A program made the translations under genes and the position numbers. A stretch of 64,000 bases of DNA from Blasia pusilla. Its lineage: Eukaryota. The notes below the pieces were generated by a model. The model saw nothing but the letters and a program-made list of their open reading frames with translations. It made no database searches and was not told where the DNA came from. Each line of letters starts with the position of its first letter. The stretch's first letter is position 1. Location of the stretch: positions 23,622,001-23,686,000 of the forward strand of contig CM114271.1 in the NCBI GenBank assembly GCA_050084515.1, written 5' to 3'. Below, one piece after another: positions 25,821 through 63,772 of this stretch.

Positions 25821-26760
25821 GTGTTAGATCTCTTTGGAGGGATTAGCACCGAGTTAACTACTATTTTGCAGGCAGGAGTGCAAGTATAACAATACATGTA
25901 TGTGGAGAGTGATGATGTTGCAAGGCGCATCTCATTACGACATATGGCGCAGTTACGCCTATGTTTTCTCGACTTATTGTCTGCGTCCTCGGTACAGGAA
26001 TTCCAGAGTTCCCTACCGAGGGATATTTTGTTGTTGGGGGTGCAGGACTTAGGGTTTAGGGTTTAGGGTTTAGGGACCATTGATTTGGTCATTTCTGGTC
26101 GGCCATGTGAGGGCCAATCGAGTGCTGGACGAGGCAACGGGTTGGTTGATACTCGATCCTGGTTGTTTTGGGAGATGTTGAGGGTCTTACGGCACTTGGA
26201 GGAGCACCAATCTCGTTCTCTAGCCTATATTATGGAGAATGTGCCATCTTAGGAGACTCCAGGTCACGGGTGGTGACAAGTGCTCATCAAGTGCGTGCCT
26301 GGATCGGCCCAGCAATGTTCTTGGATGCGGCGAGTGTAGGTTCTAAAGCCCATCGCCCGCGTCTATGGTGGACCAACTTGGTGCCCCATGCGGTGTTACG
26401 GAGGGCGTATGCGAGAGTGGAGCACCCCTCCCATTTGTTAGTGGATTCCATTCTGGATCGAGGTCGTCGATCACATGCAGTGAGGCATGATGATCGACCA
26501 CCGTTGACTGTGGTCAACAGGGTAAGCAGGCCGCAGGTAGCCTTTCCCACGTTTGTGAGTTTTCACGCTTCGTATGCATACAAGGAGGCCGGTCCTGGCT
26601 TGGTTTGGGATGACGTGGTTCAGAGGTTGGTGGGGCCCAACGCCAATGAGAGAGAGTAGGCGATGGGATTTCCCCCAGGAGTGACGGCACTCTCGTCAGT
26701 ATCAGAGGCATCACGACGTCATGTCTTGGGTCAGGCGATGTACCTGAATAATTTGACATG
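25821..26760 (+). pseudogene. DNMT3-like C5-cytosine DNA methyltransferase domain inside Pol, copy 1 (degenerate)
   Basis: Motif I VLDLFGGIST (25821), II YVESD, IV IDLVISGRPCEG, VI YIMENVP (ENV 26235-26243), VIII DAASVGSKAHRPRLWWTNL, IX-X ERE.AMGFP...RRHVLGQAM. Confidence 0.9.
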
Positions 26761-29899: not shown

Positions 29900-31171
29900 G
29901 CCGCATCCTTTGCAGAGAGCACGACTAGTGCAGCATGCCCACGAGGAGTTGGGTCACGGGATGAAGCGGACGTACAACTTGCTCCAGATTCACTATTGGT
30001 GGCGAGGCATGCAGACTGACGTTCAACAGTTTGTTGCCAGATGTATGGTGTGTGATCGGGTCCGAGCATCAATGCTCTGACTCCACATTTGCATCCATTA
30101 CCGATCATGGGCTTAGGGTATAGATGGAGTTTGGATTTTGCAGGACCTTTGCCTTTGACGAAGCGTCACAGTTGTTATGTGTTGGTGATGGTCGATCACT
30201 TCTCGAAGTGGATCGAGTTGGCTGCATTGCCTGACAAAGCGAGTGAGGGAGTAGCTTATGCCTTCCTTAACAGAGTATTGAGTCATTATGGCGCACCGGC
30301 TGAGGTGTTGACAGACCAATATACTGAGTTTCGCAGTGAGTTCCAGCCCTTGTGTGATTAGGCGCTGATCGACCATCGCACGACTTCGCGAGATCATCTT
30401 GAGGCGGATGGATTAGCGGAGAGAGTTGTGTACACGGTGAAGAGGGGTTTACGCAAGTATGGCTTGCAGAGAGGTCACATAGGAGATTGGGACCTCCAAT
30501 TGCCCTGGTTGGCGATGGGATACAGATTTAGCAGGCAGGCATCCTTAGCGTCTTTTTCACCATACTTGCTACTTTATGGCCGAGAGCCAGATTTGCCTGC
30601 GGCCATTCGTCGAGATGCTGGTGAGGTGTTGGATCTTGATGACCCATATATATGGATGCGAGCATGTTCTTAGAGGGATGAGTTGTTTCGGAGAGTGATG
30701 CCCATGGCGTTCGAGAACTTCGCGATTGCACAACATCGGGATACGTTGAGGTATGCGACTATTCGGGGTGGTGGTTATCGGCCAACTATCCGGAGGTTTC
30801 ATCAAGGAGACTTTGTATACTTGCAGCAGACGCCACCGACGACATTGGATGTGACTGTAGGGCGCACTAACCTGAGAGTGCGTGACGTTTTGCCATCCGG
30901 TGTTCTCTTGTGGGAGGGACGCGATGGTATGGTATGGAAGGACCATGTGCGTAATTGTGCGCCATTTCACCTTCCTAACATTGATGGTACAGTAGATCCG
31001 AGCTGAGCAGTAGTTCCTGCAGGCTTGCGTTGTATATTGTATGGTTCTGCCCATGGTGCGGCCACGATGCTAGTCTGTGATGGATGTTCAAGAGGTTGGC
31101 ATATGGCATGTCTGACGCCACTTCTCACTAGGATTCCTTGGGGACGATGGATGTGTCCCAGATGTACATAG
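29900..31171 (+). pseudogene. DDE integrase with C-terminal PHD finger, copy 1 (degenerate)
   Basis: HHCC (HEELGH...CMVC), WSLDFAGPLP, VLTDQ, GLAERVV. PHD-like CILY...CDGCSRGWHMACL...WMCPRC at 31031-31165, stop TAG 31169-31171. Confidence 0.9.
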
Positions 31172-34100
31172 AGGAGATACTAGGTAGGTTTGATTTCGAA
31201 CTGAAAAATTCGATTTCGAATTTTTCTGTGACATGGATGACAAGAAGGCGACAAATGATGGGGCCACATGAGCACCCGGCCTTCTTGCTCTTAGCGTCCG
31301 AGAGATGTATGTCATGGTAGGTAGAGATAGATGGCTATCTGGAGTTAGAGGGACCTAACCACCAGCTAAGGGGCGATTGGAGATATTTTAGTACTTCTTG
31401 TCTTGTTGTTTGGATGCCATGAGTTAGCATGGGATCGTGCGTGTTTGTGTGTGTGTTCGGTGACAGCGATGTATGTTCCATAGTGATGTGTGTGCGCACG
31501 ATAACTGTAATGTCTTTTAGGATAGATCGGTGAGATCTAGTAGAGCGCCTTCGTTAGTAGTGGAGGACACGCTCAGTAGGTCGAGGATGACATGTTGAGG
31601 CCCCATGAAACCTGAGAGAGCAGGTTTCCCCTTCGTTTCGGCTCATTTGGAGCCATATTGAAGAACTTGCTATTTTAGGTAAGTACCATTTTGAGTATAT
31701 GATCAACTTTATATTTTTGGTAAGTGGCCCTTGTCCTCCTACATCTGGTCAAGAGCCAAGGAGGTGACTTGGGAGAATAGGTTACCATGGAGAGAGCTTG
31801 GGAGAGGGGAGGGGTGAACCTCAAGGAGAGAGAGCTTGAGAGCTCATTCTCTCTTTGTTGAACCTCTTGGCATGAGGCGGCGGAGCTATGGTCCCTTGCC
31901 TTGTAAGTGTAATCCAAGCCTCTCATTAGGAGAGTGGGTTTGGTTTGACATGAGAGAGAGTGCACACCTTTGAGAGCTGTGGTGTGAGATGGTATAAAGA
32001 GAGATTGGATCTTACTTTAATTGGAGATATTTTAGTACTTCTTGTCTCGTTGTTTGGATGCCATGAGTTAGCATGAGATTGTGCGTGTTTGTGTGTGTGT
32101 TCGGTGACAACGATGTATATTGTATAGCGATGTGTATGCGCACAACAGGCTTGTTAAGACTTGAAGGCATGCCATAGGTGCGATCGGGGCTTGGCAAGTT
32201 GAGGGTGAGCCTCATGCAAGCTTGCAGGCCTGGCAGGCGGGCCATTTGGGCTTAGTGTGAGCCAATAAGGCAAGTGGTGTGCGGACCATGCGGATTTCTT
32301 GTAGGCCTAGGTTCTGAGCATGTGGGTTGTGCGGACTAAGGCTTGGGACAAGGTTTAAGATGTTGGATTCTGAACATCCACTTCTCTGAGCACCATTAAT
32401 TTAATCGGCCCCCTTGAATGAGGAAAAGCCTAGTTTGATGGTTCCGACTTAGACGTCGAAGGAGTCATAGTAGTATGACGTAGGTGGTTTGTGGAGTAGC
32501 GTTACTAGGATTATCCAACCCTATATTGCATCAGGGTCCGGGGCACCCTGATGCGTCGCAGGGGTCCAAAGGTGCAGCCCTTGGTATGCCAAGACGACGC
32601 GGGGGTCCGAAGAAAATTAGGTTAAAAACCTAGTTTCCTAAGTAGTGACATAGTGGGGAGCGGCATCGGTAGCGCGTTCTCATATGTCAAGTTATCTCCA
32701 TATTCAGGTTCCATCGAAGCTCTTCTGTGAGCGCACAGACGGACCAGGCCACTTTGTATCTCTATGTTTTGTAAAGATTTCAGTGATTTCGTCACTTTTG
32801 TTTTCTCACATGAGGGTGTGGGTTGAAGCAAGCTCCGCGAGGCTGCGTCCGAACTTAAGCGCGGTTCATGTGTGGGTAGGGGAAGATTTTGAAGGTTATT
32901 GAAGGCACTTGAGGGGATGGAGAAGAAAGTAGAAGATTAAAATATAATTGCAAATGAATGTGGTTAAAGAAGTGGGAATAGTAGTGATCGAGAGAGGTAG
33001 GATGCATGTTAAAATAGAATTGAATTAGGTGGTTGTATTAGAAAATAGATTAGTTGCAAACAAAAGTGGATAAAGAAGTTAGGATAGTTGAATAAGGATT
33101 GGGTTTAGGAGAAAAAAAAAAGATTTGCTAAATGATAATTACTATGAATGGTTTATATGATAATTTAAAATAAAAAGTGGGAGGCATTTGGAGATCTTCT
33201 TAGTGAAAAAGTAAAGAAAATTTTTGAGCAAAGTAGTTTTGAAAAAGGATAAATTGAGAACGTCTACCTTGTTTCCGAGGACTCTAGTACATCACAAGCT
33301 CAGAATTAATAGTAAGTGGGGGTAAATCAGGTAAAAGAGTGAAGGGTTCATTCTCTTCCATCCACACTCCCCAATATAAAATTATTTATTTTGGGTATAT
33401 CCTCACAATCTCATTCCTCCCTTCATATCTTTCTATCTCTACTCTTTTATGGAAAAAACATATCTCCATAGATAGGTGAACTTGATAAGTGAGACTATAT
33501 TTTGCCACTAGATAATCATGATAGTTTAAGGTATTTTGGTTATCTAGGTTAGCATATTGATCATTCTTGTTCATAGTGATGGTTCCACAATTGCTTGTGG
33601 AGCATTCACAGACAATATTTGGTGTAAGTTATTTATATTTCACCGGTCGATATATCCTATTATAGACATTATGTACGCTTGATCTTCTGTAAATCACTTT
33701 AACTCGCCCCTCTATTCTTAAAGGGTATGGTTTGGTCACATCCAATTTTCAAGATGCCCACCATTCTAGAATGGATAGATGACGTATAGTGGATGCTCGA
33801 TCAACCTTCCCACTATGGGAGCCATCCCTTGATATAAAATTGTTGCAAACATCTCCTCACACATTATTGATTATCTTGAATAAAACCGAGATGCTTCCTT
33901 AAACACCTTCATGCAATAGTAAATATCCTCACTAAATCCAAGGATTTGATTTATTTTACAACAATATATGGTTCCGTGTAAACCTGAGTCGTCAATATCC
34001 TCAAAATAATGTCCTACTACTACATCCTTGTAAGAAATCCACTTACATCCATGAGAAACCACCAATTTCTTCCCTACATGAGTATTAAGTCCCTTAAAAA

Positions 34101-34329
34101 GATGTTGAGCAATTTTTTCAACCCCCGACCTCTTTGGCATCGATTTCCCAGTTCCATGTCTTTGAGACTCTCGTAGAAAATCTTTACAATTCCAAGATAT
34201 AGTCATGGAAACCATCTATATCCCTCAAAATGTAGGATTGTCTATTCTTTAACATAAGCTAGAAAACCAGTCTAGCCATTCCTACATTAAAGCTATGTTA
34301 AACTCACTTGTGGAATCGACTCTTTGCCT

Positions 34330-37300
34330 TGTCATGCGCATACACATCGCTACACAACATACATTGCTGTCATCGAACACACCCACAAACACTCACGATC
34401 CCATGCTAACTCATGGCATCCATACACAAAGGCGAGAAGTACCAAAATATCTCCAATCTGATAATTGATAACCTCCTGGTGCAGCACCATCTCCTCCTCC
34501 ATGCTGAGGCACACGTCCATGACCTTGACAAGTGCAATCGCGCTGATGATAGGCTCCACCACATGACCAACAAGTAATAGTAGGAGGCTGCTGTTGAGCC
34601 GCATATGAAGATGCAGGGTCTCTATGGCACGGCCTCCTAGTATCCTCCCTGAGCTCGTGGTGCCACAGTCGATCTATCTCGGAGTCCACGTTGTTGCACA
34701 TGTGGTGCAGCCAATCATGACTGCTCTCGCCTAGAACCCATTGTGGCTACGCTCTCCTCTGCCATGTTGCACTCAATGTTCTCGGCGGTCCTAGAAGCAT
34801 CTCTCAACATAGGGAAGGTGTTCATAAGAAGTACCCCCTCCCCCACCTGTGTTCGAAGGGTCTGGTCCAACATTGCGTACCATGATTGGATAGCCTGAGC
34901 CTGTGTCACCCCCTGAGTGACGTTGATCAACCGGCGCAAGCGAGTGTAAGCCTCACGCAAACTCTCACTTGGGCGCCTCTGTAAGTCATGGATGCTCCGC
35001 AACTTCTCCGTCCGTACCCCTTGGTAGCTCACCCTCAACTCAGCAAAGAATTCAACCACAGGGTTGAACCTGTGACGACCCCGCCTAGACGTTGCAACTG
35101 CTCTAGTGCGAGTGACCCCTCCTAAAATGTCACTTGTGGAAGAGGAAGTAGCCTCTTTTGACTCCTCCTCCTCATGTGGGAGTGGCTCCGTCCATGACAT
35201 ATAATGTGGGTCATAGTAGAGCCTCAACGCCTAGATCTCACATGCATATCTCTGAGAGAATTCATGGTCATCGTCCATGGGCGCCCCCTCTAAGAAATTG
35301 TGCAACTTAATCGTGCCTATTGCACCAGAAAACCTACGCGGTCCTCTACCTCGGTCGTCCATCTCGTATACCCAACTGGTAGGACCACTCACAATGTGTG
35401 GCGATGTGCTCACAAATTCCTCTACATCCTCCCCCTCGTCTAACGATGACATAGAAGGAGGTCGAGGTGGTCCCTCACATGGAGACCCTTGAAAACTCGT
35501 GCCACTCCGTGTAAAACCTGTAGAGCTACTCTTGGGTTGACCACCTCGCCTCTCAAAGTCTCGAATGGACGCCGTGATGACCCTCGTGCCCCTCTCACCC
35601 GATCACTCTCAACCTTGCAAGTAATCCCTCAATCACTCATCCGAAATATGCAGCACTCGATCTACACTCTCCCTCCTCGAGACGTGTAACGTGCGGCAAC
35701 ACGCGGCGTGGTGTGGAAAATTGACCAGGCTATCATCTCATTGACAACCTACCCTCAACTCTGGATATCCCACACAAATCTATGTCCCCTAAACCACATA
35801 CATGAAGGATGCTCTCAGCATCCACATAACCCAATATCCCCAAATAAACTTTCTAAATCCCAGAATCCCTCACACGTGCAGGGTAAAGGACCAGAATGGG
35901 TAACCTGAACACATGTCGATGTCGCTCCTCAGCAACTTCAAATCTCAACCCCAACTTGGTTGTGAAGACAACTCCTCCAATCAGCAAGTCGTACTCCTCT
36001 CGTTCTGACGCTACTCAACCTCCTCGATGTGCGGTGCAGGTTGAGCGGTCTGGTGCAGCACTGGCGGCATGAGACGGCTACAAAAAGCACGGCACTCGGT
36101 GGCATAGCCTCCTCAATCAGCAATTCACACGCTCTGCTCCTTAGTGAAGGAGCGGTTCCTCGATCGAGACGGTGCGGTGTGGCACGAGCGGCACGACGCA
36201 ACAATCGGCCGCGCGTTGCAGCTACACGCGTCACGACACGATACTCGATCGTTGTCGAGCAGCTACCAATCACAACATAACAACATGAAATCAAAACTCA
36301 AACACCATAACCGGAGGTCATCTGCCATCACTGGTTGATGACAAAATTGCGATGAAAGTGACGGCCAAAACAAAGTAAGTGGTGGCAACATCATGGAAGA
36401 CCCTCCACTCCATAATGGCGGCAATGGCAACCAAAGGGTGGACAACGGACGGTGGACCGTTGATGGTGACGATTGACCGTTGATGGTGACGGTGACGGTT
36501 GACCATTGACGATGACGGTTGACTATTGACGATGATGGTTGAATGTTGATGGTGAACCGTTGATAGTGACTATGATGGCGACGGCCGCCGGCGACGTGGC
36601 GGCTGGTTTAGGGTTTGAACAATTTAACCCTAAAGATCACCTCGCAATGGCAGTTTTGCAAGATTGACCATAACGTTTTTCTCGCAACTCTAAATTGTGC
36701 ACTGTTTATTGCACAGCGTGCACAACTGCATGATCTACGACAACATCAAAAAATATTTAGAATTGGACATTCCAATAAAAACTGACAGGGATTGTTGGAA
36801 AGCCCAATGTCTCTTTCTCCTACACAAAATTTGGCAGCGCTTCCGCGCTGATTTCTCCCAACGAAAATGTAAAATACAAATCAGCAAGTTACATGGTGCT
36901 CCCAAAAGCGCCAGAATGGGGCAACCTGCCCCCATAATCAATTCCTATCAGAAATTGGGTAGTTCTTCCGCGCGCCAGTCTTCCACACAAAAAATCGGCA
37001 AATGCAAGGAAGAATCAAAGCAGCCCTTGCTCCGATGAGCAGTCCCATGAGCCGCTGAACGGGGAACACGGTCCTCAACCTGCAAAAATAGCGAGTGACC
37101 AATGAGCTCCGCCATGAAGCTCTCTCACTCTCTCATTCTCTCATTCTCTCATTCTCTCTTTCTCTCATTCTCTCTTTGTAAAGTAAGATCCAATCTCTCT
37201 CTACACCATCTCACACCATAGCTCTCAAAGGTGTGCATTCTCTCTCATATCAAACCAAACCCACTCTCCTAATGAGAGGCTTGGGTTACACTCACAAGGC

Positions 37301-37691
37301 AAGGGACCATAGCTCTACTGCCTTATGCCAAGAGGTTCAACAAAGAGAGAATGAGCTCTCAAGCTCTCTCTCTTGGAGGTATACCCCCTTCCCTCTCCCA
37401 AGCCCTCTCAACGGTAACCTATACTCACAGGTCATCTCCTTGGCTCTTGACCTGCTGTAGCGGGTCAAGATTCACTTCCCAAAGTGGAAAGTCAACTATC
37501 CCTAATATGGAAACTTACCCGAAATAATAAGTTTCTCTATATGGCTCCAAATGAGACGAAACGAAGGTGAAACCGGCTCTCTTAGGTTCCCCAAGGCCTC
37601 AACAGGTCATCCTCAACCTTGTGGGCATGTCCTCCACTACTCGTGTAGACGCTCTACTTGATCCCACCGATGTATCCTAACAGTCGTGACA
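34330..37691 (-). mobile_element. Internally deleted copy 3 of the same retrotransposon (A - leader - partial gag - B)
   Basis: The minus strand starts TGTCACG at 37691 and ends GACA at 34330, with TSD GCCT (34326-34329 / 37692-37695). A 37179-37691, B 34330-34458. Gag ORFs 35231..35452, 34715..35227 and 34411..34701. Confidence 0.92.
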
Positions 37692-38399
37692 GCCTCGATC
37701 TTGGCACCATCGCTTGACTCGATTTGGTTATATCTTGCTTCCGATGACTTAGCTCCACTAAACATATAGCTTGGAGTAAGAAGATAATAAGATTTCATAT
37801 TAAACCAATGTAGCAACCTTGAAAGCCCTTAGTTGTCAAGGCACCAATGAAATTTGGGGCCTAATCCAAAACTAATCCTGCTTTGAAAGAAAAGGAGGAA
37901 AAACATGAAAATTGGAGAGAAAAAATGAGTTACTTAGCCCCCAATCACCTCCTTATGAGCATTTGGCCTCACTTGTGCACCCTTTTCTTATGGGTTTATG
38001 TTTCAAACCCATTTTAGAAGTTAGGAAGGGGGAGATAAGTTCACACCTCCACCAATTAGACTCCGCCACATGTTCTCACAAGATTTATGGGAAGCTAGCC
38101 AAACGTGCGCTAAGTGTGGGATTGGAGGAAGAGTACAACAATGCTACATGGCGAGCTAGGATTGGAGGATTAGAGGTGGGCTAGGCGTAGGCCTCCTTAC
38201 GCCCGCCGTGGGCCTCTTGCGTGCTCGACGTGGACTCCACAAGATGAATCGAGGCGGTCTAGGATGGGGGCCCGATGTTGGCCCAACTCGTGTGCGAGAA
38301 AGAAGCCAATAGGCCCGACGCGGGCTACAAAAATGGGCGTCAAAATACATGGACAAGATGCGGGCTATCCGAGCAAGGGCTTAATGTTTGCTCAATACA

Positions 38400-39641: not shown

Positions 39642-40205
39642 TGTTATACAATATACAATACACACCGTCTTTGCTAATCAAATAAACTAGAAAGTCGTGT
39701 AATACATTCAACCATGGAGTCAAAATGAAGAAGCAAGTAGAATCTATTGAAATATCTCCAAAATATCAAAAGAGGACCTTTCCTTACACAAAAACAAAGC
39801 TCCATCTCTCTCTCTCTCTCTCTCTCTCACATTCATTATGAGAGGATGGGGTTATTGACAAGGAGGATCATAGTTTTACTACCTCATGCAAAGAAGGTTC
39901 CACAAAGAGAGAATAAGCTCCCAAACTCTCTTTTCTCGAGATGTACCTACTCGCTCCCCAAACCCTCTCCCTTGTGACCAATGTGCATAGGTGATCTTCT
40001 CGACCCAAAACCTTAAATAGTTGATCAAGGATTCTTTCCACTAATAGATAGATGATTATCTAAAAGTAATTATTTCCTTAAATAAATTCCAAAAGGGCCT
40101 AAACCAAACTTACAAGATACTCTACTCCTCAAAATGTTCTCCTTACATATTTGGCTCTTCCATCGATCTCCCCCATAATGCCACACGGATAATCTTCTTT
40201 TTGCA
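39642..40205 (-). mobile_element. Highly diverged A+B terminal-repeat remnant of a related element
   Basis: aatatctccaa at 39751-39761 is the reverse complement of the B start, and B-like sequence lies to its left. 39836-39970 resembles A (atgagagg..gggtta, catagt, aaggttc.acaaagagagaat.agctc). Ends approximate. Confidence 0.55.
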
Positions 40206-49224: not shown

Positions 49225-50774
49225 TCATCTCGTCCAAGATGCCAATGTCTTGGGTTCCCAAAGATGGAGAGCCTTGTCATAAAAAGAGCACGTTGCAACC
49301 AGGGTTCTTAAGCCTTGGCAATCAGTCACGCTTCTTGATGCTTGCGGTTCAAGCGATTCGTTGACTACCCCCTGCAGCCCAACTCCTGCACTTTCTTCCT
49401 CTGTTTCCTCCCATCGACATCCCTTGGATGTGGGCACAACCTGTGTAACATCTCCTCCTTCATCTGAGGTCACAGATCCCTGTTTACTTCGAAGGTAGTT
49501 CCGTTTAATTCCATCACCTGCAATATCCAGCCCTTCAAATCCGCTGAGCAATGCAGTAGAGTCTTTTCTGGTAGACAAAGAATGTTCCAAGTCACCCCGG
49601 TACCAACTCGCTCCATATGCCAAAGACTGATGCTCCTTGTAGTCTTCGAGTATCTGAATTTCCTCCTCCCCAACACGCGCTATTGCGAAGCCACTATGCA
49701 TGCAGGCGGCCAGAATTAACCTCTTATCTAGGTGATGCCACTTCAGTCTCCAGACCCCTCCACCCAGTCCCAACTGGAATTTCTTTAAAGGGCGCTGCAT
49801 CATTCTTAAGTCCCATAATCGCACGTTCTCATCGTAACTACCGGTCATGAGGATGTTCTCCCACAAGGGATTGCTCTGAATGCTGCACACACCCATCTGA
49901 TGGGTCTTCTTGTCGAGGAATACTGGACGATGAGGTTCTTCTCTCAAGTCCCAGCAGGAGAATCTCGAATCGTCACCTCCGCTGTAAACGATTTGAGGTT
50001 TCCAAGTGTCGTACGAAACAGTCCAGGCCTCAAACTCGTGCGCATTCCATGTGGCAGTTATCTCTAGCTCCGACTGTCCCAAGTCCACAACGGACAGCGA
50101 TCCATCGGAATGGCTCACAGCAACCTGACGCTCGGAAGCTATCGGATCCCACTCCACAAACAGGCACATGGAAGACGAGACGTCCACCCGGGCGGTCTCA
50201 TGAAGCTCCAGCTCTGAACCCTCGGTACCTGTCCCAGCCGAGCAGCTCGGCAAACTTTACTCGCACTGTCGACAATGGCCGACCGACACCGGCATCGAGG
50301 TGCATCGAAGCACAATGCACAAAAACCATCACGCAAAAAAACGACTAGATGGAAAACCTGACGAGATTGCAATGCACCAGCCCAACTTCCGCAGCAGGTT
50401 TCGACAACAATCTCACCTGATGAGCCGTCTGCACTCCCTCCCTCCCGCAACGTGTGCAAGCGTAAGCTACCATCAGCACTGGCCTGAGCTAAACGAGGGG
50501 CGACCCTCCCGCCCGCCATCCCCGGCTCCCATTTTATATCAAAAACCCCTGAAGTCTCCTGCTGATACAGCTGCGTCAAATGAAGGCTGCTTGAACCCCC
50601 AGCGGAACCCCGGTTCTCAGCTGAGAAGAGGTACAAACCCCCCACACGAACCGGCGTGCCATGGTTCCCCGTCTCTTGCAAAGTGTACGAGGCAGCAGCT
50701 AGGACGTGCAGATAGGGCTCGTGAGGGCAGAATTCTGCTGCATCTGCATTCCCTGACAATTTCACCCTCGCCAT
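49225..50774 (-). CDS. DPH7: Diphthine methylesterase homologue (WD40 protein DPH7/WDR85/RRT2), 2 exons, about 453 aa
   Basis: Exon 1 is 50774-50417 (MARVKLSGNADAAEFCP...ASYTLQE...GVFDIKW). GT donor at 50416; phase-compatible AG acceptor at 50229, with an alternative 15 nt downstream. Exon 2 has AHEFEAW, SGGDD, HQMGVCSI, TGSYDE, GGGVWRLKW, AACMHSGF, HQSLAYGASW and ATCSFYD, all characteristic of DPH7. Confidence 0.9.
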
Positions 50775-53299: not shown

Positions 53300-53496
53300 G
53301 TCTTAATAAAGTCCGTGTCCGCAGACTTATGCTTGTCCCTAAGACGGACATGTCCATGCGGGCTTGGATACCCAGGTACCCACGCCCACACCTAAGTCTG
53401 CCTCCGGAGTCCACCAAGCCCGTAGCGGGCATCCGGGCAGGTCGAGCCCGCATTGGTTTTGTGGCCCGCGGGGTGGGCTCAGGCTCGCCCAGCGGG
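53300..53496. repeat. Left arm of a GC-rich foldback/MITE-like host repeat interrupted by copy 2
   Basis: gagcccgcattggttttgtggcc (53444-53466) is an imperfect inverted repeat of gaccacaaaaccattgtgggctc (63816-63838), on the far side of the insertion. Confidence 0.55.
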
Positions 53497-53805
53497 TGTC
53501 ACGTCTTTTAGGATAGATCGGTGGGATCTAATAGAGCGCCTTCATGAGTAGTGGAGGACACGCCCAGTAGGTTGAGGGTGACCTGCTGAGGCCCTTGGAA
53601 ACTTGAGATAGCAGGTTTCCCCTTCGTTTCGGCTCATTTGGAGCCATATTGAGGAACTTACTATTTTAGGTAAGTACCATTTTTAGTATATGATCGACTT
53701 ACTATTTTTGGTAAGTGACCCTTGACCTCCTACATCAGGTCAAGAGCCAAGGAGGTGACTTGGGAGAATAGGTTACCATGGAGAGAGCTTGGGAGAGGAG
53801 AGGGG

Positions 53806-53849
53806 TATACCTCAAGGAGAGAGAGCTTGAGAGCTCATTCTCTCTTTGT
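53806..53849 (+). promoter_or_regulatory. Putative Pol II core promoter in repeat A (TATA-like element plus initiator-like TCATT)
   Basis: TATAC (TATAAC in A2) at 53806, and CTCATTC about 30 nt downstream (53834). The same segment is complementary to the PBS-position sequence. Confidence 0.45.
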
Positions 53850-54009
53850 TGAACCTCTTGGCATGAGGCGGCGGAACTATGGTACCTTGCCTTGTGAGTG
53901 TAACCCAAGCCTCTCATTAGGAGAGTGGGTTTGGTTTGACATGAGAGAGAGTGCACACCTTTGAGAGCTATGGTGTGAGATGGTGGAGAGAGAGATTGGA
54001 TCTTACTTT

Positions 54010-54025
54010 ACAAAGAGAGAATGAG
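54010..54025 (+). promoter_or_regulatory. Putative self-priming primer-binding site
   Basis: ACAAAGAGAGAATGAG begins at the last base of A1 and is the exact reverse complement of 53834-53849. There is no tRNA-type TGG PBS. The same sequence occurs in copy 1 (21323-21338) and copy 3 (37164-37179). Confidence 0.6.
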
Positions 54026-57000
54026 AGAATGAGAGAGTGAGAGAGCTTCATGGGGAGAGCTGGTCACTCGCTGTTTTTGTAGGTTGGGGACCGTGTTCCC
54101 CGTTCAGCGGCTCATGGGAGTGCTCACCGGAGCAAGGGCTGCTTTCATTACTCTTTGCATTTGCCGATTTTTCGTGTGGAAAAGTGGCGCGCGGAAGCGC
54201 TGCCCAATTTCTGATAGGGATTGAGTATGGGGGCGGGTTGCCCCATGCTGGTGCTCTCGGGAGCACCATGTAGCTTGCTGATTTGTATTTTTACAGATGT
54301 TACATTTTCGTTGGGAGAAATCAGCGCGGGAGCGCTGCCGAATTTTGTCTAGGAGAAAGAGACATTGGGATTTACGACAGTCCCCGTCAGTTTTTACTGA
54401 AATGTCCGATTCTAAATATTTTTTGATGGTAGCGTAAATCGTGAAGCTGTGCACACTGTGCAACAAACAGTGCACAATTTGGAGTTGCAAGCAAAAAGTT
54501 ATGGGCAATCTTGTAAAGCTGCCATTGCTAGGCGATTTTTAGGGTTAAATCGTGCAAACCCTAAATCAGCCGCCCCACCGGCGGCGGCCGTCGCCATCAT
54601 AGTCACCGTCAACGGTCGATGGTCAACCGTCACCATCATCGGTCGGTCGTCACCATCAGCGGTCAACCGTCACTGTCAAGGGTCCACCGTCCATTGTCCA
54701 CCCTTTGGGTGCCATTGCCGCCATTACGGAGTGGAGGGTCTTCCATGACGTTCGTTGATTCCTTGACTTGCGTCGCCACCACGTACTTTGTTTTGGACGC
54801 CACCGTCATCGCAGTTTCTTCATCAACCAGTGAAGGCAGATGACCTCCGGTTATGGTGTTTGAGTTTTGATTTCATGCTGCTATGTTGTGATTGGTAGCC
54901 GCTCGACGACGATCGAGTATCGTCGCGGACGCCCGTGAGCCGCAACGCCGCCGATTGCCGCGCCATGCCGCTCGGGGCGCACCGCACCATCTCGATCACG
55001 AGCCGCACCGTCATTGTGGAGCAGAGTGTGGGATTATTATTGATTGAGGAGGGTATGCCGCCGAGTGCCGCATCCCACCATCGGGGCGTGCCGTTCGAGC
55101 CGTTCGTGCCGCTGCAACGCCGCACCGTTCGTTGGGACCGCATCGTCTATCGAGGAGTTTTGAGCAAAGATCGATGACGGGAGGAGTATGACTTGTTGAT
55201 TGGAGGAGTTGTCTCCACGATCGAGTTGGGGTCGAGATTTGCGATTCTTTGAGGAGCGACATCGACATGTGTTCAAGTTAGGTTACCCATTCTGGTCCTT
55301 TACCCCGCACGTGTGAGGGATTTAGGATTTATTTGGGGATATTGGGTATGTGGATCGAGAGCATCATTTATGTATGTGGTTTAGGGACATAGACCTGTGT
55401 GGGATGTCCGGAGTTGAGGGTAGGTTGTCGATGAGATGATAGCCTGGTCGATTTGCCGCACCACGCCGCGTGTTGCCCGACGTTACGTCTCGGAGAGAGA
55501 GAGTGTAGATCGAGTGCCGCATGTTTGGGATGAGTGATTGAGGGATTCCTCACGAGGTTCAGAGTGATCGGGTGAGAGGGGCACGAGGGTCATCACGGAG
55601 TCTGTTCGGGACTTTGAGAGGTGAGGTGGTGAACCCGAGAGTAGCTCTAGAGGTTTTCGCGGAGTGGCGCGAGGTTTCGAGGGTCTCCACGTGAGGGACC
55701 ACCTCGACCTCCTTCGTGTCATCGTCAGACGAGGGGGAGGGTGTAGAGGAGTTTGTGAGCACATCGCCACACATTGTGAGTGGTCCTACCAGTTGGGCGT
55801 ATGAGATGGACAACCGGGGTAGAGGACGCGTAGGTTTTCAGTGCGATGAGGGGCGATTGAGTTGCACGATTTTATAGCAGAGTTTAGGAGTTGATGCGAC
55901 TCCCGGGCCAGGAACTCTAGAGAGTTCAACCCGTTCTGACATGGAACGGTATGTTCCAGCATTTAGAGGGGGCGCCCATGGGCGATTACCATGAGTTCTC
56001 GAGAGATATGCATGTGAGATCGGCGTGGAGGCTCTACTATGACCCACATTATGTGTCATGGACGGAGCCGTTCCCAGATGAGGAGGAGGAGTCGAGGAGA
56101 GGCTCCGCCTCTTCCACTAGTGACGTTTTAGGAGGGGTCACTCGCACAGAGCGATTGCATTGCCGTCTAGTCGGGTTCGTCCCGAGTTCAACCCGTGGTT
56201 GAGTTCTTTTTGAGTTGAGGGCGAGCTACCGGGGGCGGACGGAGAAGTTGCGGAGCATCCACGACTTCAAAGGCGCTCGGGTGAGAGTTTGCGTGAGGCT
56301 TACACTCGCTTGCGCGGTTGATCAACGTCACTCGGTGGGGTGACAGAGGCTCGAGCTATCCGGTCATGGTATGCGATCTTGGACCGGACCTGCGGACACG
56401 GAGTGCGGGAGGGGTGCTTCTTATGAACACCTCCCCTACGTTGAAGATGTTTTAGGACCGCCGAGAACATTGAGCGCAACATGGCGGAGGAGAGCGTAGC
56501 CACCATGGGTTGGGCGAGAAGCGATCCACGATTATGCACCACGTGTGCGGCAGAACGTGGACTCGAGATAGGTCGATCGTGGCACCACGAGCTCGGGGAG
56601 GATACCGAGAGGCCGTGCCCACGAGACTGCGCCTTCATATGCGGCTCAGCAGCCGCCTACTATTACTTGTTGGTCATGTGGTGGAGCCCATCATCAGCCG
56701 CGATTGCACTCGTCGGGGTCATGGGCGTGTGCCTCAAAGATGGAGGAGGAGATGGTCTTTGCACCAGGAGGTTATCAATGTGACTATTGTCGAGGTATGG
56801 TCATACACGCGCCATGTGTTTTAGTTTACATCTGAGTTACGCCTGGACCGAGGGCCAGAAAGGGCACCAGAGCGAGTAGCCGGTCCGGGTGGGCCTAGAG
56901 ATCGTGCTCGGTGGTCCCGTTGGGGACGAGGAGGGAGTTGCCCGAGAGGGTGGTGGAGCTGCCCGTGGAGGAGGTAGAGTACCACCATCTAGACGCGCCG

Positions 57001-58490
57001 AGGAGATGCCGGACGTGAGGTCGGGATGGTTGCTCGATACAACGACTACAGGAGAGAGATTGCCGCTATGGCATTGAGGTTACCCGATGCGGATCCGTGG
57101 CATCGACATCATATGGAGCAGCCAGAGATCTGGAGGATCCTAGATGGATGTGCGGGGTTGCCCAGATGGAGGCCGCCGCAGTTGTGATGCGTGGAGCGCC
57201 GCAGAGTTGGATCCACGGCCAGGGGAAGCCAAGAGATGGCAGACTAGGCTTCCTCAATCTTTCACGTTGTCGAAGCGATGAGGACCCCATCGATGGGTCC
57301 TCATCAAAGTTCCGGAGAGTTGGTAATGTTGTTGGTGTGCAAGCACGAGGGCGATGGGAGAAGCGAGTGCGGCGACTCCTATTGTTGATGCTCGGGAGGG
57401 GCATGTGTCGAGCACGTTGTTGGGGCGGCCACCGTTGTGTACCGCACTCCTTTATTTTTGCTTCCGATGTTGTGGCGTTGGGAGGTACGCCCGCCGAGGC
57501 TTTTTTGGCTGGCCGCTTCACTATGTGAGCGCGAGTTGGAGTTCTGCATCACGTTAGAGGTGATTGAGGAGGTGATGGACCTGCCCTTGAGCGGATGCTC
57601 GGGCCGCCCACGTCGATTCATGGCGGTGCGGTCGCTAGGATGGCGGAGATGCCCGCTAGACCCGCGATAGAGCGTGCCATGGCTTCTCCTGGTGTTGTGT
57701 TCTTTGGATAACCGAGGAGAGGTCTTCCAATTGGTGAGTCTTGGAGGTAGAGCTTTTAGTCCGTGGCAGCGTCTTGTTGATTCAGAGCGCAACCCTTGAT
57801 GTTGGGGAAAGTGTCATTAGAGGATTGGGCTTGACGAGAGCCGATGTGGAGTGTTGTCCATTTCGGATACTGAGACATCCTTGGGTGGAGCGAGTACCAC
57901 CACAATATATCACCCGACAGAGGTCGTGGTGAGGATTCGCCGGGACATCCTGAGATGAGTCCGTGGTGCGCGCCAAGGCGATAGTGATCGATCTTTGAGT
58001 CCTCGACGTCTTGGTTGGTGGAGGAGTGTTATACCCGATGGGGTTTTCCCTGGATTCTTGGGAGGAGTCGCATCTCTGAGACCAGGATGGCAATCAGGTG
58101 ATGGGCGCCTTAGCTCATTACCCGTTCGATTCACAGGTGCGATGATCGAGCAACGGCCAGAGAGATGGCGACCTTAGCAGATTTAGCAGTGCCATCACTT
58201 GGCCTAGTGATTTGATTGAGGGACATGTCCATGCAGAGGATACTCCCGTTCCTGACATTTCTATGGAGAGGAGTGTTATGGTAGCCGCATCATTCCGTGG
58301 AGGAGAGGTGCTGTGTGGGGGCTCGGACCGAGGAGCTTCAACGATTGGCGGTGCGCACGCGCGCATCAGCGTGGAGCGAGGCGTTTGCACGAGGCGTGGC
58401 GGGTGTGAGGAACCCGAGGTAGCGGGAGTGCTACGATGACACCCTTGGATACTACACCCATTGTGTGGTGTACCGGAGGAGGGTATTCGA

Positions 58491-59420
58491 GTGTTAGATC
58501 TCTTTGGAGGGATTAGCACCGGGTTAGGCTCTTTGTTTTGAGGCAGGAGTCGAGTCTGATAGTACTTGTATGTGGAGAGTGATGATGTTGCGGCGCGTCT
58601 CACTCGACATGTGGTGCAATTACGCCCACGTTTTCCCGACTTATTGTCTGCGCCGCGTCTGGGTACCGAGTTCCCCTACCGAGGGATATTTTGTTGTTGG
58701 GGGCGCAGGACTTAGAGCGGGTAGGGACCATTGATTTGGTCATTGCCGGTTGGCCATGTCAGGGCCAATCGAGTCTTTGGGACGAGGCGCGGGTTGGTGA
58801 CACTCGGTCCAGTTGTTTTGGGAGATGTTGAGGGTCTTACGGCGATTCTGCAGGAGAGCACCGATCTCGTTCTCCAGCCTACATTCTGGAGAAAGTGCCG
58901 ATCTCAGGAGACTCCAGGTCACGGGTCGTGATGAGTGCTCATCAGGTGCGTGCCTGGATCGGCCCAGCAGTGTTCTTGGATGCGGCGAGTGTAGGTTCTA
59001 GAGCCCATTGCCCGCATCTATGGTGGACCAACTTGGTGCCCCATGCGGTGTTATGGAGGGCGTATGCGAGAGTGGAGCGCCCCTCCCCTTTGTTAGTGGA
59101 TTCCATTCTGGATCCAGGTCGTCGATCACACGCAGTGAGGCACGATGATCGACCACCGCTGACTGTGGTCAACAGGGTAGGCAGGCCGCGGGCAGCCTTG
59201 CCCACGTTTGTGAGTTTTCCCGCTTCCTATGCATACAAGGAGGCCGGTCCTGGCTTGGTTTGGGATGACCAGGTTCAGCGGTTGGTGGAGCCCAACGCCG
59301 ACGAGAGAGAGCGAGCGATGGGATTTCCCAGAGTGACGGCAGTACCATCGGTGTCAGAGGCATCACGACGCCATGTCTTGGGTCAGGCGATGGACCTGAA
59401 TCGCTTGACATGGATCCTCG
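58491..59420 (+). pseudogene. DNMT3-like C5-cytosine DNA methyltransferase domain inside Pol, copy 2 (frameshifted as assembled)
   Basis: VLDLFGGISTG (58491-58523), IDLVIAGWPCQG (catalytic PC within 58748-58765), YILE.VP, DAASVGSRAH..HLWWTNL and ERERAMGFP...RRHVLGQAMD. Confidence 0.92.
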
Positions 59421-59766
59421 GCCTTGGGAGTGGTCGAGCGGCGTCGTATGAGATCGCGACAGATCACACGGCATTGCGTTAGGAGCCCCATGCCTACCGA
59501 GACGGTGGAAAAGTGGGCTAGGGGCGAGACCCGAGGAGATCTACGCACCGGGGGGAGATCGGGAGAGACACCCTTGGACTTCTTGGGATGTTTTGAAGGT
59601 ACGCAAGGAGATGATAGCCACAACATCGAAGCGTGGTTTCGGCAATCGCACGTGGAGGAGATCGAGTTTGCGATTGGTGTAGGAGAGCGGCCGAGTGTTG
59701 TTGTTCGAGACGGGTTGCACCATAGCAACCACCGATACCCGCGCCGGAGAGTCCTACCGTAGTCAC

Positions 59767-62700
59767 GATGGAGACTTGGGAGCCAGATATGGGCCCTAAG
59801 TTGACAGGAGGAGAGCGGCGCCGAATACATCGTTCCTCGGGAGTTATAGGAGCGCTGCGTTTAGCATGGAGGATTTGGGTACGCTGAAGGGACCGGGATC
59901 CGCATTGAGTTGTCGAGTGATATGCCGATCTTCCGGCGACCCTACACAGTCTGATGATATGGAGAGGGCTCGATTGAGTAGGAGCAAGACTTGGTCGGAG
60001 CGGGACTAGTGGAGATGTCGCATGGGGAGTATGCATACCGCCCTTTGTCATGCCCGCCAAGAAGGATGTGCATGGCAACCGGGCGGATAGGCGGATGTGT
60101 GGGGATTACCGACCTATCAATCGCGACGAAGTCCGATAGGTATGCCATGCCCACCCCGAGAGATCTTTGATGCGATTGGTCACGCAAAGGTCTTGATTCA
60201 TTGATTTTGAGTGGATACCATCACCGCCTATCGATTGGAGGACAGAGGAAGACGGCATTTTGGGGCATCGATCCTCACGGGAAGGATTGTTTGTACCAGT
60301 GGCGGTTCTTACCATTTGGGTTAAAGAACGCCCGGCTGAGTTTGAGAGGGTCATGGATAGGATCTTGGCTGGTCCGGATTTTGCTAGGTGTTATATTGAT
60401 GACATTGTAGTCTTTAGCGCCACGGTTGAGGAGCATGAGCAACATCTAGAGGAGGTGTTTCGGCGATTGCAATTACATGGGCTGAAGCTACATCCAGGCA
60501 AGTGCAAGTTCTTCTATGACCAGATTGAGTACTTGGGTCATACGATATACCCGGGGCCTTGGTGTTCAGCAGAGGCGAAGGTAGAGGCTATCTCACGCAT
60601 TCCACGCCCTACTGAGATGTGAGCCGTGATCGGCGCATTCATGGGATTGACGAACTTCTATTGGCGTACGTCAAGGGATTGATTTGATTGCGGGGGCCGA
60701 CCTTGCTCACCAAGGTGGATCACGAGTGGCACCAGGGGATGAGCAGAGCGAGCATTTCGATTGCTCAGGGCAAAGTTGGCGTCCGCACCCATCTTGAGGA
60801 GACCGATCGGGCGTCCTTTCGATTGCACCTGATTGGAGCATGTTGGGGCTTGGAGCGGTGCTCACCCAAAGATGATGATGAGGGTAGAGAGTTCGTGGTA
60901 GCTTACGCTAGCCGCTCGAACAACGCTGCAGAGGTGAAGCACACTCGTATGAGGGTGAGTGCTTGGTGCGATGTGGGGTGTCGCGCATTTCAGGTGTTAC
61001 TTATTCGGCAACCCCTTTACCATCATCATCGATCATCAACCACCTGAAGTGGTTGATGGAGTCCGACAAGCTTTGAGGAAGCTTGCGAGATGGGCTCTGT
61101 TGTTGCAGGAGTATGATTTTCAGGTGGTACATAGACCTGGAACGCTCAACCAGGATGCAGATGGGTTGAGTCGTAACCCATGCCCGAGTCAGCGAGATGC
61201 GATTGGAGCTCGATGGCATGGAGAGAGTGATGAGGAGTCGGTGCCAGGATGGCACGCGTCAGCCTATTTAGGCATGTTGGCTATGGAGAGCCAAAGTGTG
61301 GAGACTTCAATGGCGAGGTCTAGTGGAGAGTCTTTGGATCCCGAGGCCAGTGAGGACACAACAAGTGGCCGAGATATTCATGATGATGGAGTAGTCTTAG
61401 AGTACCTTCGTACTGGCAGCCTTGCGAGCACCATGAATGCTAGAGAGCGGGATCGGATCCTACAGCGGGCCAGACGGTTCCGTTGGGAGGGGACACATGT
61501 TTTGAGGGTTTGGGAGGATGGTAGAGTACGCGTAGTGCCGCATCCTTTGCAGAGAGCACGACTAGTGCAAACCATGCCCACGAGGAGTTGGGTCACTTTG
61601 GGGTGAAGCGGACGTATAGCTTGCTCCAGATTCGATATTGGTGGCGAGGCATGCAGGCGATCGACGTTCAGCAGATTTGTTGCCAGGTGCATGGTGTGTG
61701 ATCGGGTCCGAGCATCGTTCAATGCTCCGACTCCACGATTGCATCCATTACCGATCATGGGCTTAGGGTATAGATGGAGTTTGGATTTTGCGGGACCTTT
61801 GCCCTTGACGGAGCGCCACGGTCGTTATGTGTTGGTGATGGTGAGCACTTTCGAAGTGGATCGAGTTGGTTGCATTGCCTGAAAAAGCAAGTGAGGGAGT
61901 AGCTTATGCCTTCCTTGACGGTGTCTTTGAGTCATTATGGCGCACCGGTGAGGTGTTGATGACCAGGTACCGAGTTTAGCGGTGAGTTCCAGGCCTTGTG
62001 TGATCAAGCGATCGACCACCGCGACGACGACCGCGAGATCATCCCGAGGCGGATGGATTAGCGGAGAGAGTTGTGCAGACGGTGAAGAGGGGTTTACGCA
62101 AGTATGGCTTGCAGAGAGGTCACCTAGGAGATTGGGACCTCCAGTTGCCATGGTTGGCGATGGAATACAAATTCAGCAGGCAGGCATCCTTATCGTCTTT
62201 TTCACCGTACTTGCTACTTTATGGCCGAGAGCCAGATTTACCTGCGGCCATTCGTCGAGATGCTGGTGAGGTGCTGAACCTTGATGACCCAGATGTATGG
62301 GTGCGAGCATGTTCTCAGAGGGCTGAGTTATTTCGGAGAGTGATTCCCATGGCGTTCGAGAACTTGGCGATTGCACAACATCGGGATACGTTGAGGTATG
62401 CGACTATTCGAGGTGGTGGTTATCGACCAACTATCCGGAGGTTTCATCAGGGAGATTATGTCTATTTGCAGCGACGGCACCGGCGGCGTTGGATGTGATC
62501 GCAGGGCGCACTATCTTGAGAGTGCGTGACATTTTGCCATCGGGTGTTCTCTTGCTGGAGGGACGCGATGGTATGGTATGGAAGGACCATGTGCGTCATT
62601 GTGCGCCATGTCACCTTCCTAACATTGATGGTACAGTAGATCCGAGCTTAGTAGTAGTTCTTGCAGGCTTGCGTTGTATGTTGTGTAGTTCTGCCCGTGA

Positions 62701-62815
62701 TGCGGCCACGATGCTAGTCTGTGATGGGTGTTCGAGAGGATGGCATATGGCATGTTTGACGCCACCTCTCACTAGGGTTCCTCAAGAACGATGGATGTGT
62801 CTTAGATGTAGATAG
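59767..62815 (+). pseudogene. pol: RT - RNase H - DDE integrase - PHD region of copy 2 (many 1-bp indels as assembled)
   Basis: CYIDDIVVFS, VVAYASR, KLARWALLLQEYDF...HRPG..NQDADGLSR, WSLDFAGPLP. Intact PHD at 62675-62809, stop at 62815. Confidence 0.9.
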
Positions 62816-62986
62816 AGAAGTTAGTTCTACATTCCGACTTGTGTCTATGACATGGATGACAAGGAGGCGACTAACGATGGGGCCACATGAGCACCCGGCC
62901 TTCTTGCTCTTAGCGTCCGAGAGATGTATGTCATGGTAGGTAGGGATAGATGGCTATCTGGAGTTAGAGGGACCTAACCACCAGCT

Positions 62987-62993
62987 AGGGGGG
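62987..62993 (+). promoter_or_regulatory. Short polypurine tract just upstream of repeat B1
   Basis: AGGGGGG-C-GATTGG in copy 2 and AAGGGG-C-GATTGG in copy 1 (31368-31373). Absent before B2. Short for a PPT. Confidence 0.5.
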
Positions 62994-63772
62994 CGATTGG
63001 AGATATTTTGGTTCTTCTTGTCTCGTTGTTTGGATGCCATGAGTTAGCATGGGATCATGCGTGTTTGTGAGTGTGTTCGGTGACAGCGATGTATGTTGTG
63101 TAGCGATGTGTATGCACACGACAGCTATCACGTCTTTAAGGATAGATCGGTGGGATCTAATAGAGCGCCTTCATGAGTAGTGGAGGACATGCCCAATAGG
63201 TCGAGGGTGACCTGCTGAGGCCCTTGGAAACCTGAGATAGCAGGTTTCCCCTTCGTTTCGGCTCATTTGGAGCTATATTGAGGAACTTACTATTTTAGGT
63301 AAGTACCATTTTTAGTATATGATCGACTTAATATTTTTGGTAAGTGACCCTTGACCTCCTACATCAGGTCAAGAGCCAAGGAGGTGACTTGGGAGAATAG
63401 GTTACTATGGAGAGAGCTTGGGAGAGGAGAGGGGTATAACTCAAGGAGAGAGAGCTTGAGAGCTCATTCTCTCTTTGTTGAACCTCTTGGCATGAGGGGG
63501 CGGAGCTATGGTACCTTGCCTTGTGAGTGTAATCCAAGCCTCTCATTAGGAGAGTGGGTTTGGTTTGACATGAGAGAGAGTGCACACCTTTGAGAACTAT
63601 GGTGTGAGATGGTGGAGAGAGAGATTGGATCTTACTTTAGATTGGAGATATTTTGGTTCTTCTTGTCTCGTTGTTTGGATGCCATGAGTTAGCATGGGAT
63701 CATGCGTGTTTGTGTGTGTGTTCGGTGACAGCGATGTATGTTGTGTAGCGACGTGTATGCGCACGACACGGG

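Follow-up and report, generated by a model that had tools for sequence, protein, structure and literature searches.

Two degenerate retroelements of the Ty3/gypsy type, 10–11 kb long and both on the + strand of the window (the whole 64,000-nucleotide stretch of Blasia pusilla DNA analysed here), share a split-direct-repeat layout in the order A1...PPT-B1-NN-A2-B2, where NN is a two-nucleotide spacer and both elements run from TGTC to GACA. Relatives in metagenome contigs carry the same layout, and integrated copies lack the two identical terminal LTRs that are the norm for Ty3/gypsy elements. Our preferred reading, held with slightly better than even confidence, is that the integrase of this Ty3/gypsy-type element cuts an internal site of abutted ends on cDNA in which one LTR has been joined to the other. 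The features on which this reading draws are listed in Table 1.

Table 1. Features of the three retroelement copies in the window (positions are those of the window).
Feature	Position	Strand	Remarks
Copy 1, 5′ TSD GGCT	20806-20809	.	same letters as 32148-32151
Copy 1, A1	20810-21323	+	followed by PBS-like arm, 21325-21338
Copy 1, C5 DNA methylase match in pol	26076-26261	+	upstream of RT; PF00145, E 3.9e-07
Copy 1, rve DDE integrase core	30119-30388	+	PF00665, E 1.5e-11
Copy 1, PHD finger	31050-31165		
Copy 1, B1	31375-31503	+	
Copy 1, spacer AC	31504-31505	+	
Copy 1, A2	31506-32019	+	
Copy 1, B2	32020-32147	+	
Copy 1, 3′ TSD GGCT	32148-32151	.	
Third copy, internally deleted	34326-37695	-	A...B form without A2-B2; A 37179-37691, B 34330-34458; TSD AGGC, 4 bp
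Copy 2, 5′ TSD CGGG	53493-53496	.	same letters as 63769-63772
Copy 2, A1	53497-54010	+	starts TGTC; carries core promoter, R and U5; 97.3% identity with A2
Copy 2, TATA-like box in A1	53806-53809	+	28 nt ahead of inner arm
Copy 2, inner arm CTCATTCTCTCTTTGT	53834-53849	+	predicted RNA 5′ end; 16-nt perfect complement of 54010-54025
Copy 2, self-priming-type PBS	54010-54025	+	right after A1; first base is last base of A1
Copy 2, internal region	54026-62986	+	many stops and frameshifts; Pfam scan in 3 frames, stops as X
Copy 2, RVT_1	60332-60547	+	
Copy 2, RT_RNaseH	60959-61114	+	
Copy 2, Integrase_H2C2	61573-61677	+	
Copy 2, PHD	62675-62809	+	
Copy 2, PPT-like G tract AGGGGGGC	62987-62994	+	adjoins B1
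Copy 2, B1	62995-63123	+	ends GACA; 97.7% identity with B2
Copy 2, spacer GC, 2 nt	63124-63125	+	between B end and A start; proposed staggered cut site
Copy 2, A2	63126-63639	+	
Copy 2, B2	63640-63768	+	element end GACA
Copy 2, 3′ TSD CGGG	63769-63772	.	

Each of the two full-length copies is enclosed by a perfect 4-bp TSD, and the TSDs differ between the copies, so the whole A...B-A-B unit was inserted twice independently. The repeats are much too alike for chance: identity is 94.5% (copy 1) and 97.3% (copy 2) for A1/A2, and 90.7% and 97.7% for B1/B2. The substitutions are specific to the copy rather than to the position of the repeat within it (16 sites versus 1 in A, 4 versus 0 in B); the A pair and the B pair were thus each identical at insertion, as LTRs are, a pattern which indicates that A and B are each renewed in every cycle. 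In copy 2, B, the two spacer nucleotides and A together span 645 bp. The B1/A2 junction of this copy, at 63120-63129, reads GACAGCTATC (GACA-GC-TATC), and that of copy 1, at 31500-31509, reads GATAACTGTA (GATA-AC-TGTA), while copy 2 has CTTACTTTA|GATTGG at the A2|B2 join, where copy 1 is one G short. The G tract, the start of B1, the end of A1, the junction strings and the missing G had been picked out in an earlier note on this DNA, and all of them lie where it placed them.

The coding content is that of a Ty3/gypsy element. Broken frames were translated through, with X at stops, and the three sense frames of each copy were scanned against Pfam. Both copies match RVT_1, a Ty3/gypsy-type RT_RNaseH, Integrase_H2C2 and a C-terminal PHD finger, and the pol order of RT, RNase H and DDE integrase across the copies and their relatives (RVT_1, RT_RNaseH, Integrase_H2C2, rve) is as in Ty3/gypsy. 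The PF00145 match of copy 1 is absent from the scan of copy 2, the more decayed of the two; the domain is present in the relatives P0013, P0036, P0101 and L072. Within the clade the domain has two positions: ahead of RT (P0013, P0101 and L072) or, in P0036, between RNase H and integrase. No match to the tyrosine recombinase domain PF00589 came from the sense frames (the three of each copy and those of L072), from the three antisense frames of copy 1 or from the intact homologues P0013, P0036 and P0101. The integrase-PHD part has homologues in Klebsormidium nitens, Tetrabaena, Haematococcus, Chlamydomonas eustigma and many metagenome proteins, several of them with PF00145. The integrase ends in a PHD finger where chromoviruses have a chromodomain, and this finger may aim insertion at particular chromatin. 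The Chlamyvir clade was considered as the identity of the family and rejected, as published descriptions give Chlamyvir a chromodomain, not a PHD finger. All the copies examined are old, with repeats 2–10% diverged and broken frames.

The repeat unit that reverse transcription would recognize does not coincide with A or B taken singly. Of 44 copies, 41 have a G run immediately 5′ of the B that first follows pol, and the other 3 have weakened runs; the sequence right after A1 is complementary to a segment inside A. This pairing of inner arm and PBS is the top inverted repeat of its region in both window copies and is equalled in 0 of 500 shuffles. With different letters, the PBS also pairs with an inner segment of A in L023 (17 nt) and in L051 and L020 (11 nt), so that arm pairing is found in three sequence-unrelated families; for the window, L023 and L051/L020, 0–2 of 500 shuffles do as well. 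The arms measure 10 nt in L036, and four further relatives have weaker ones (8–9 nt, with 12–49 of 500 shuffles as good). In 9 of 9 elements the inner arm follows a TATA box at a distance of 26–34 nt, and this constant placement marks the arm as the predicted first stretch of the RNA. Folds of the RNA from the predicted start to the PBS have the arms paired in both the MFE and the centroid structure (z of -3.95, -2.72 and -3.93). No pile-up of RNA read starts or ends is listed in the same-species reads, and the transcript start and poly(A) site given here are predictions; inspection by eye of the two window copies found no classical tRNA-type PBS (TGG...) adjoining A1. With a PPT before B1 and a self-priming PBS after A1, U3 starts at the start of B and U5 ends at the end of A. 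These positions support the earlier note's definition of the LTR as B-NN-A, with a predicted RNA start inside A. Self-priming is known for the Tf1/sushi group and predicted for the plant Tcn1 clade (PMC6317226). In the manner of that self-priming, the PBS right after the 5′ repeat of the window family complements the predicted first nucleotides of the element's own RNA; across this family and its relatives the arms measure 8–17 nt and the RNA 5′ end is predicted from the TATA box.

The layout was followed through a copy census drawn from same-species reads and metagenome relatives. Metagenome contigs searched with a profile yielded 80 loci, among which 7 pairs are one place assembled twice. 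Probes for A and B, taken from five relatives and the window, matched 48 of the 80, and the 32 loci without nucleotide likeness were left unscored; self-comparison found no bracketing repeats among those of the 32 that were compared. The form A...B-NN-A-B is represented by 24 non-redundant copies (22 from metagenomes and 2 from the window), 10 of them complete. A second form, A...B, ends at B1 and continues into unrelated sequence, and accounts for 21 non-redundant copies: 17 were read by eye (16 loci and the minus-strand copy of the window, whose B has no PPT before it), 3 come from maps only (L026, L064 and L080), and in L028 B is truncated. Non-redundant 5′ ends carry A alone in 18 of 18 cases, whereas 3′ ends carry either B-NN-A-B or just B. 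The alternative product A-B-NN-A...B, which the earlier note had suggested looking for, is therefore found at none of these 18 ends. Among the complete A...B-A-B copies, the 4-bp TSD is perfect in 7 of 10, matches at 3 of 4 positions in 2 and is lacking in L056; among complete A...B copies it is perfect in 4 of 6. The A and B sequences of the L023/window group and of the L072 group have nothing in common beyond the terminal motifs, so the layout is a property of the clade and not of one family.

Some features of the relatives lie outside this comparison. Some copies carry the terminal 15 nt of B (CTACACGTCACGACA) as a tandem duplication (at the B2 end of L072 and the B1 end of L047), and B mostly ends with two or three subterminal repeats of the ACGACA type, which could be candidate binding sites for the integrase. 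The contigs L017, L044 and L034 have perfect or near-perfect terminal overlaps of 123, 127 and 204 nt; these fit a collapse of repeats into a 'circle' during assembly, an extrachromosomal circle being the alternative. L044 also carries GACAGCTGTC 50 nt past a G run. In L057, a B of the L023-like type lies 2 kb upstream of the element's own B.

The two junctions inside the repeat cluster behave differently. The B|A spacer has the same length, 2 nt, in all 24 of the non-redundant copies and is flanked by ..[GA]A[CT]A and T.T..; this spacing is presupposed by the motif rule of the script, but the conserved flanks are in register in all rows (L071 from its row), and the spacer columns are free of gaps in an independent alignment. 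Its letters are AC in 8 copies, GC in 7, AT in 4, GT in 3 and AA in 2, mostly one or two transitions off GC, as is expected from transitions away from GC in the CHG-rich core CAGCTG. The earlier note had derived a 10-bp palindrome centred on GC as the consensus. That palindrome holds in part: the 10-mer GACAGCTGTC is intact in neither window copy but is intact in the relatives L023 and L048, while the GC spacer is confined to the 7 copies just counted and the same-species family mostly has AC. Judging from these letters, the strict palindrome is no more than a putative ancestral state, and strict palindromy is either dispensable or not conserved.

The A|B joint is exact, with the U5 end directly followed by the U3 start, in 9 of 22 scorable copies, a count made without L042, where A2 is truncated, and L066, which has no A1 to fix the end of A. 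It departs from this in the other 13: 2 copies are at -1, 6 at -2, 1 at -3 and 2 at +1, and 2 hold a larger insertion. The joint was left out when 19 L072-like copies were placed on a tree; with L073 entered as -2 (later re-read as an insertion), the state of the joint changes 9 times on this tree; shuffled labels give a mean of 9.2, and 180 of 300 shuffles give as few changes as observed or fewer. Sister copies thus differ in their A|B joint, and its state is not inherited. Among 711 alignment columns, those of the joint have the most independent indel changes (7 and 6), followed by a TA/TG microsatellite in B with 5–6. Slippage could contribute to this variability in the L072-like families, whose joint falls within AAT|ATA. 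A fixed 2-nt B|A junction beside a variable A|B junction is what the earlier note had predicted of its model.

Same-species reads agree with this pattern. Two DNA contig runs (including X1 and X5) and two raw RNA read runs, the latter being the whole of the RNA evidence, were mapped at 88% likeness, so that the figures pool many copies; the retroelement family is very abundant in them. Two nucleotides are missing at 63639 in about one third of the depth (29911/87117 depth units in X1 and 2573/7664 in X5), and one nucleotide is missing at 63640 in about one seventh (8999/63144 and 631/4833 depth units), while no indel is listed at the B|A spacer. The first spacer base is mostly A, in 511/578 and 1449/2257 depth units and in 32/38 and 71/77 RNA reads. 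Past 63768, 23 X5 contigs continue into unlike sequence. The species also expresses a second subfamily whose B differs over 62996-63084, with loose ends GTTGTGGTACAC..., and this B matches that of the metagenome locus L023 (L001 is also concerned).

In the mechanism that we propose, the RNA would begin inside A, about 30 nt past the TATA box, and its 5′ end would fold back onto the PBS. Minus-strand DNA would begin at this self-priming PBS just 3′ of A, and plus-strand DNA at the G-run PPT just 5′ of B. The end of A (the U5 end) would then become joined to the start of B (the U3 start), in a 2-LTR circle or in an equivalent run-on of reverse transcriptase or concatemer. The integrase would ignore the tips of the cDNA and use the internal U3 site, where ...GACA faces TGTC... 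across exactly 2 nt. If both strands were cut after CA, in staggered fashion, at the site in the PBS-proximal LTR, the 3′-OH CA ends would carry 2-nt 5′ overhangs, and insertion of these ends with a 4-bp duplication would produce A-PBS...PPT-B-NN-A|B. As the earlier note had proposed, the integrated termini match the half-sites on either side of the internal B-NN-A spacer; B2 sits where the tips defined by reverse transcription would meet, which makes tip joining the simplest account. The 2-nt spacing, strict across diverged families, is what such a staggered cut would demand. The joined intermediate, the making of its joint and the cut itself are what we infer from the layout, the TSDs, the positions of PPT, PBS and TATA box, the constant spacer and the variable joint; a covalent 2-LTR circle, as opposed to a run-on or concatemer, is one candidate form of the intermediate.

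Neither a circle nor any other joined extrachromosomal DNA was seen. The absence of A-B-NN-A...B from the 18 5′ ends bears on the choice between these forms. A 2-LTR circle has two identical sites, and free choice between them would also give A-B-NN-A...B. Such products could have been collapsed to A...B by recombination between the two A repeats, a route that a rough estimate of rates makes only marginally adequate; if no such collapse occurs, the mechanism is directional in a way that the circle model leaves unexplained. Alternatively, cuts at both LTRs of a linear cDNA could yield the A...B forms directly. One rival account keeps the internal integrase site but does without a closed circle: at the end of plus-strand synthesis, reverse transcriptase would leave the U5 end and continue at the U3 start, on the same cDNA or on another one, giving a linear molecule extended on the right, and the integrase would pair the leftmost A start with the rightmost B end. 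This explains the one-sidedness of the 24 A...B-A-B copies and takes the frequent A...B copies (at least 17) to be what linear cDNA gives when it has not been extended; joints that are exact, -1/-2 or +1 likewise fit an end-to-end template switch with microhomology or an untemplated base. A run-on at the left side is, however, equally conceivable, the A...B forms can also come from recombination between B1 and B2, and the right-extended linear molecule is hypothetical. We know of no precedent for end-switching by reverse transcriptase as a routine step of a life cycle, and regard this course of events as unlikely.

A route like that of DIRS, PAT and Ngaro elements looks decidedly improbable. 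It would have the RNA run from inside A1 into B2, the A2|B2 joint copied from that RNA, and B1-NN-A2 closing the circle as a bridging template, in the way put forward for split-direct-repeat elements that use a tyrosine recombinase. The order A1...B1A2B2 indeed defines the PAT, Ngaro and VIPER elements (PMC4157794), and the RNA offers some support, in that reads cross A2|B2 at a low level, as a templated joint of the DIRS-like kind would have it. The RNA is almost all sense, with a depth of 73–195 in B1, 150–326 in mid A and 23–29 in B2, and many reads depart from A at 63639 into PBS sequence. The crossing reads count against tip joining, since the joint might be templated, and the earlier note had named transcripts running through B2 as evidence against its model. 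RNA does enter B2, but at about one fifth of the depth of B1; most transcripts seem to end before B2 and some to run through. Against a DIRS-like route stand this low depth, the lack of inheritance of the A|B joint state, the canonical PPT at the start of B and PBS at the end of A, the presence of 4-bp TSDs and, over both strands of copy 1 and the sense frames of copy 2 and L072, the absence of a tyrosine recombinase. A joint templated by RNA in this manner is accordingly disfavoured. The RNA reads also contain a joint, 62938->63433, that skips 494 nt between a point just before the PPT and the promoter region of A2; it occurs in 4 and 8 RNA reads, is listed in no DNA contig and is without GT..AG ends.

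We give a negligible probability to the view that an ordinary LTR element was secondarily rearranged, or misassembled, into this layout and that replication has no part in it: both window copies are degenerate and the L017 and L044 contigs do have terminal overlaps of the assembly type, but independent assemblies supply 24 non-redundant copies with the layout, which belong to at least two sequence-unrelated families, the whole unit is enclosed by TSDs, contigs and RNA reads of independent runs span the joints, and a figure legend describes the same layout for Klebsormidium (PMC5890265).

DDE enzymes that act on abutted ends are familiar from bacteria, where the transposon circles of the IS3/IS911 and IS30 types, with abutted ends and a short fixed spacer, are the enzyme's substrate. 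Those are DNA transposons whose spacer derives from flanking DNA, whereas the spacer of the window family is inherited (GC or its transition derivatives). Joined-end DNA of the 2-LTR kind is usually regarded as a dead end, and elements with the PAT/Ngaro/VIPER or DIRS order are not expected to make TSDs. The window family resembles PAT, Ngaro and VIPER in the order A1...B1-A2-B2 and in the joined or circular intermediate that this order implies, but these elements are described as encoding a tyrosine recombinase (PMC4157794), where the window family has a DDE integrase, 4-bp TSDs, an ordinary PPT and a self-priming PBS. Closer in chemistry are the reports that retroviral integrases of PFV and HIV-1 cleave the palindromic LTR-LTR junction of the 2-LTR circle (PMC1180852, PMC1905944, PMC4372172), in which a DDE integrase likewise cuts an internal site of two abutted LTR ends. 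In retroviruses the palindrome is made by the joining of tips and its cleavage is at most a side route; in the window family each LTR carries a permanent, templated site of abutted ends, and the cut is proposed there, not at the joined tips (A|B).

The nearest published element is KnitGypsy-Dnmt3 of Klebsormidium nitens (de Mendoza et al. 2018), for which a figure legend gives a Gypsy pol, a C5 methylase and DIRS-like repeats in the order A-coding-B-A-B (PMC5890265). A C5 methylase inside a Gypsy pol together with DIRS-like repeats is also what the window family has, in another host and as another family. The integrase-PHD part of the window is 54% identical over 75% of the query to the K. nitens protein P0101, which carries PF00145. 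The main-text account of KnitGypsy-Dnmt3 contains no mechanism, TSDs, PBS/PPT analysis or junction statistics (PMC5890265). In the literature on split repeats combined with a DDE integrase we found just this 2018 legend, and no account of integration from an internal LTR site; the layout itself is thus already in print, and the mechanism was not found there.

We extend the mechanism to the whole green-lineage clade of Ty3/gypsy elements with a PHD-finger integrase, and often a DNA methylase, only tentatively, at a little under even confidence. The clade would then integrate obligatorily through LTR-LTR-joined cDNA, with the DDE integrase opening a permanent site of abutted ends with a 2-nt stagger, as in bacterial IS circles; 2-LTR-type junction forms would be productive, and the split-direct-repeat layout would be convergent with that of tyrosine-recombinase elements. 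If true, this is a natural retroelement lineage whose retroviral-type integrase acts on an internal LTR site of joined cDNA and not on linear tips, and in which a layout taken as a hallmark of tyrosine-recombinase elements evolved independently with a DDE enzyme. Plants and algae would then allow a direct test of the old question whether LTR-LTR junction forms can be integration precursors. In practice, an LTR finder built on two equal terminal repeats will misplace the boundaries of this abundant family; it would call A the LTR and B2 flank, and would miss the A...B forms.

The surroundings of the window copies hold further repeats. The 5′ internal region of both full-length copies contains a tandem array with a 20-nt period (ACCGTCAACGG-like), at 21873-21994 and 54592-54713, and repeats rich in GGGCC/GGGCT flank both copies. 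A separate A fragment lies at 39828-40084 (-), 2 kb beyond the third copy. Outside the retroelements, where the Pfam scan covered three ORFs of the window, a 343-aa open frame at 49225-50256 (-), between retroelement copies, has WD40 beta-propeller matches and is probably a host gene or exon.
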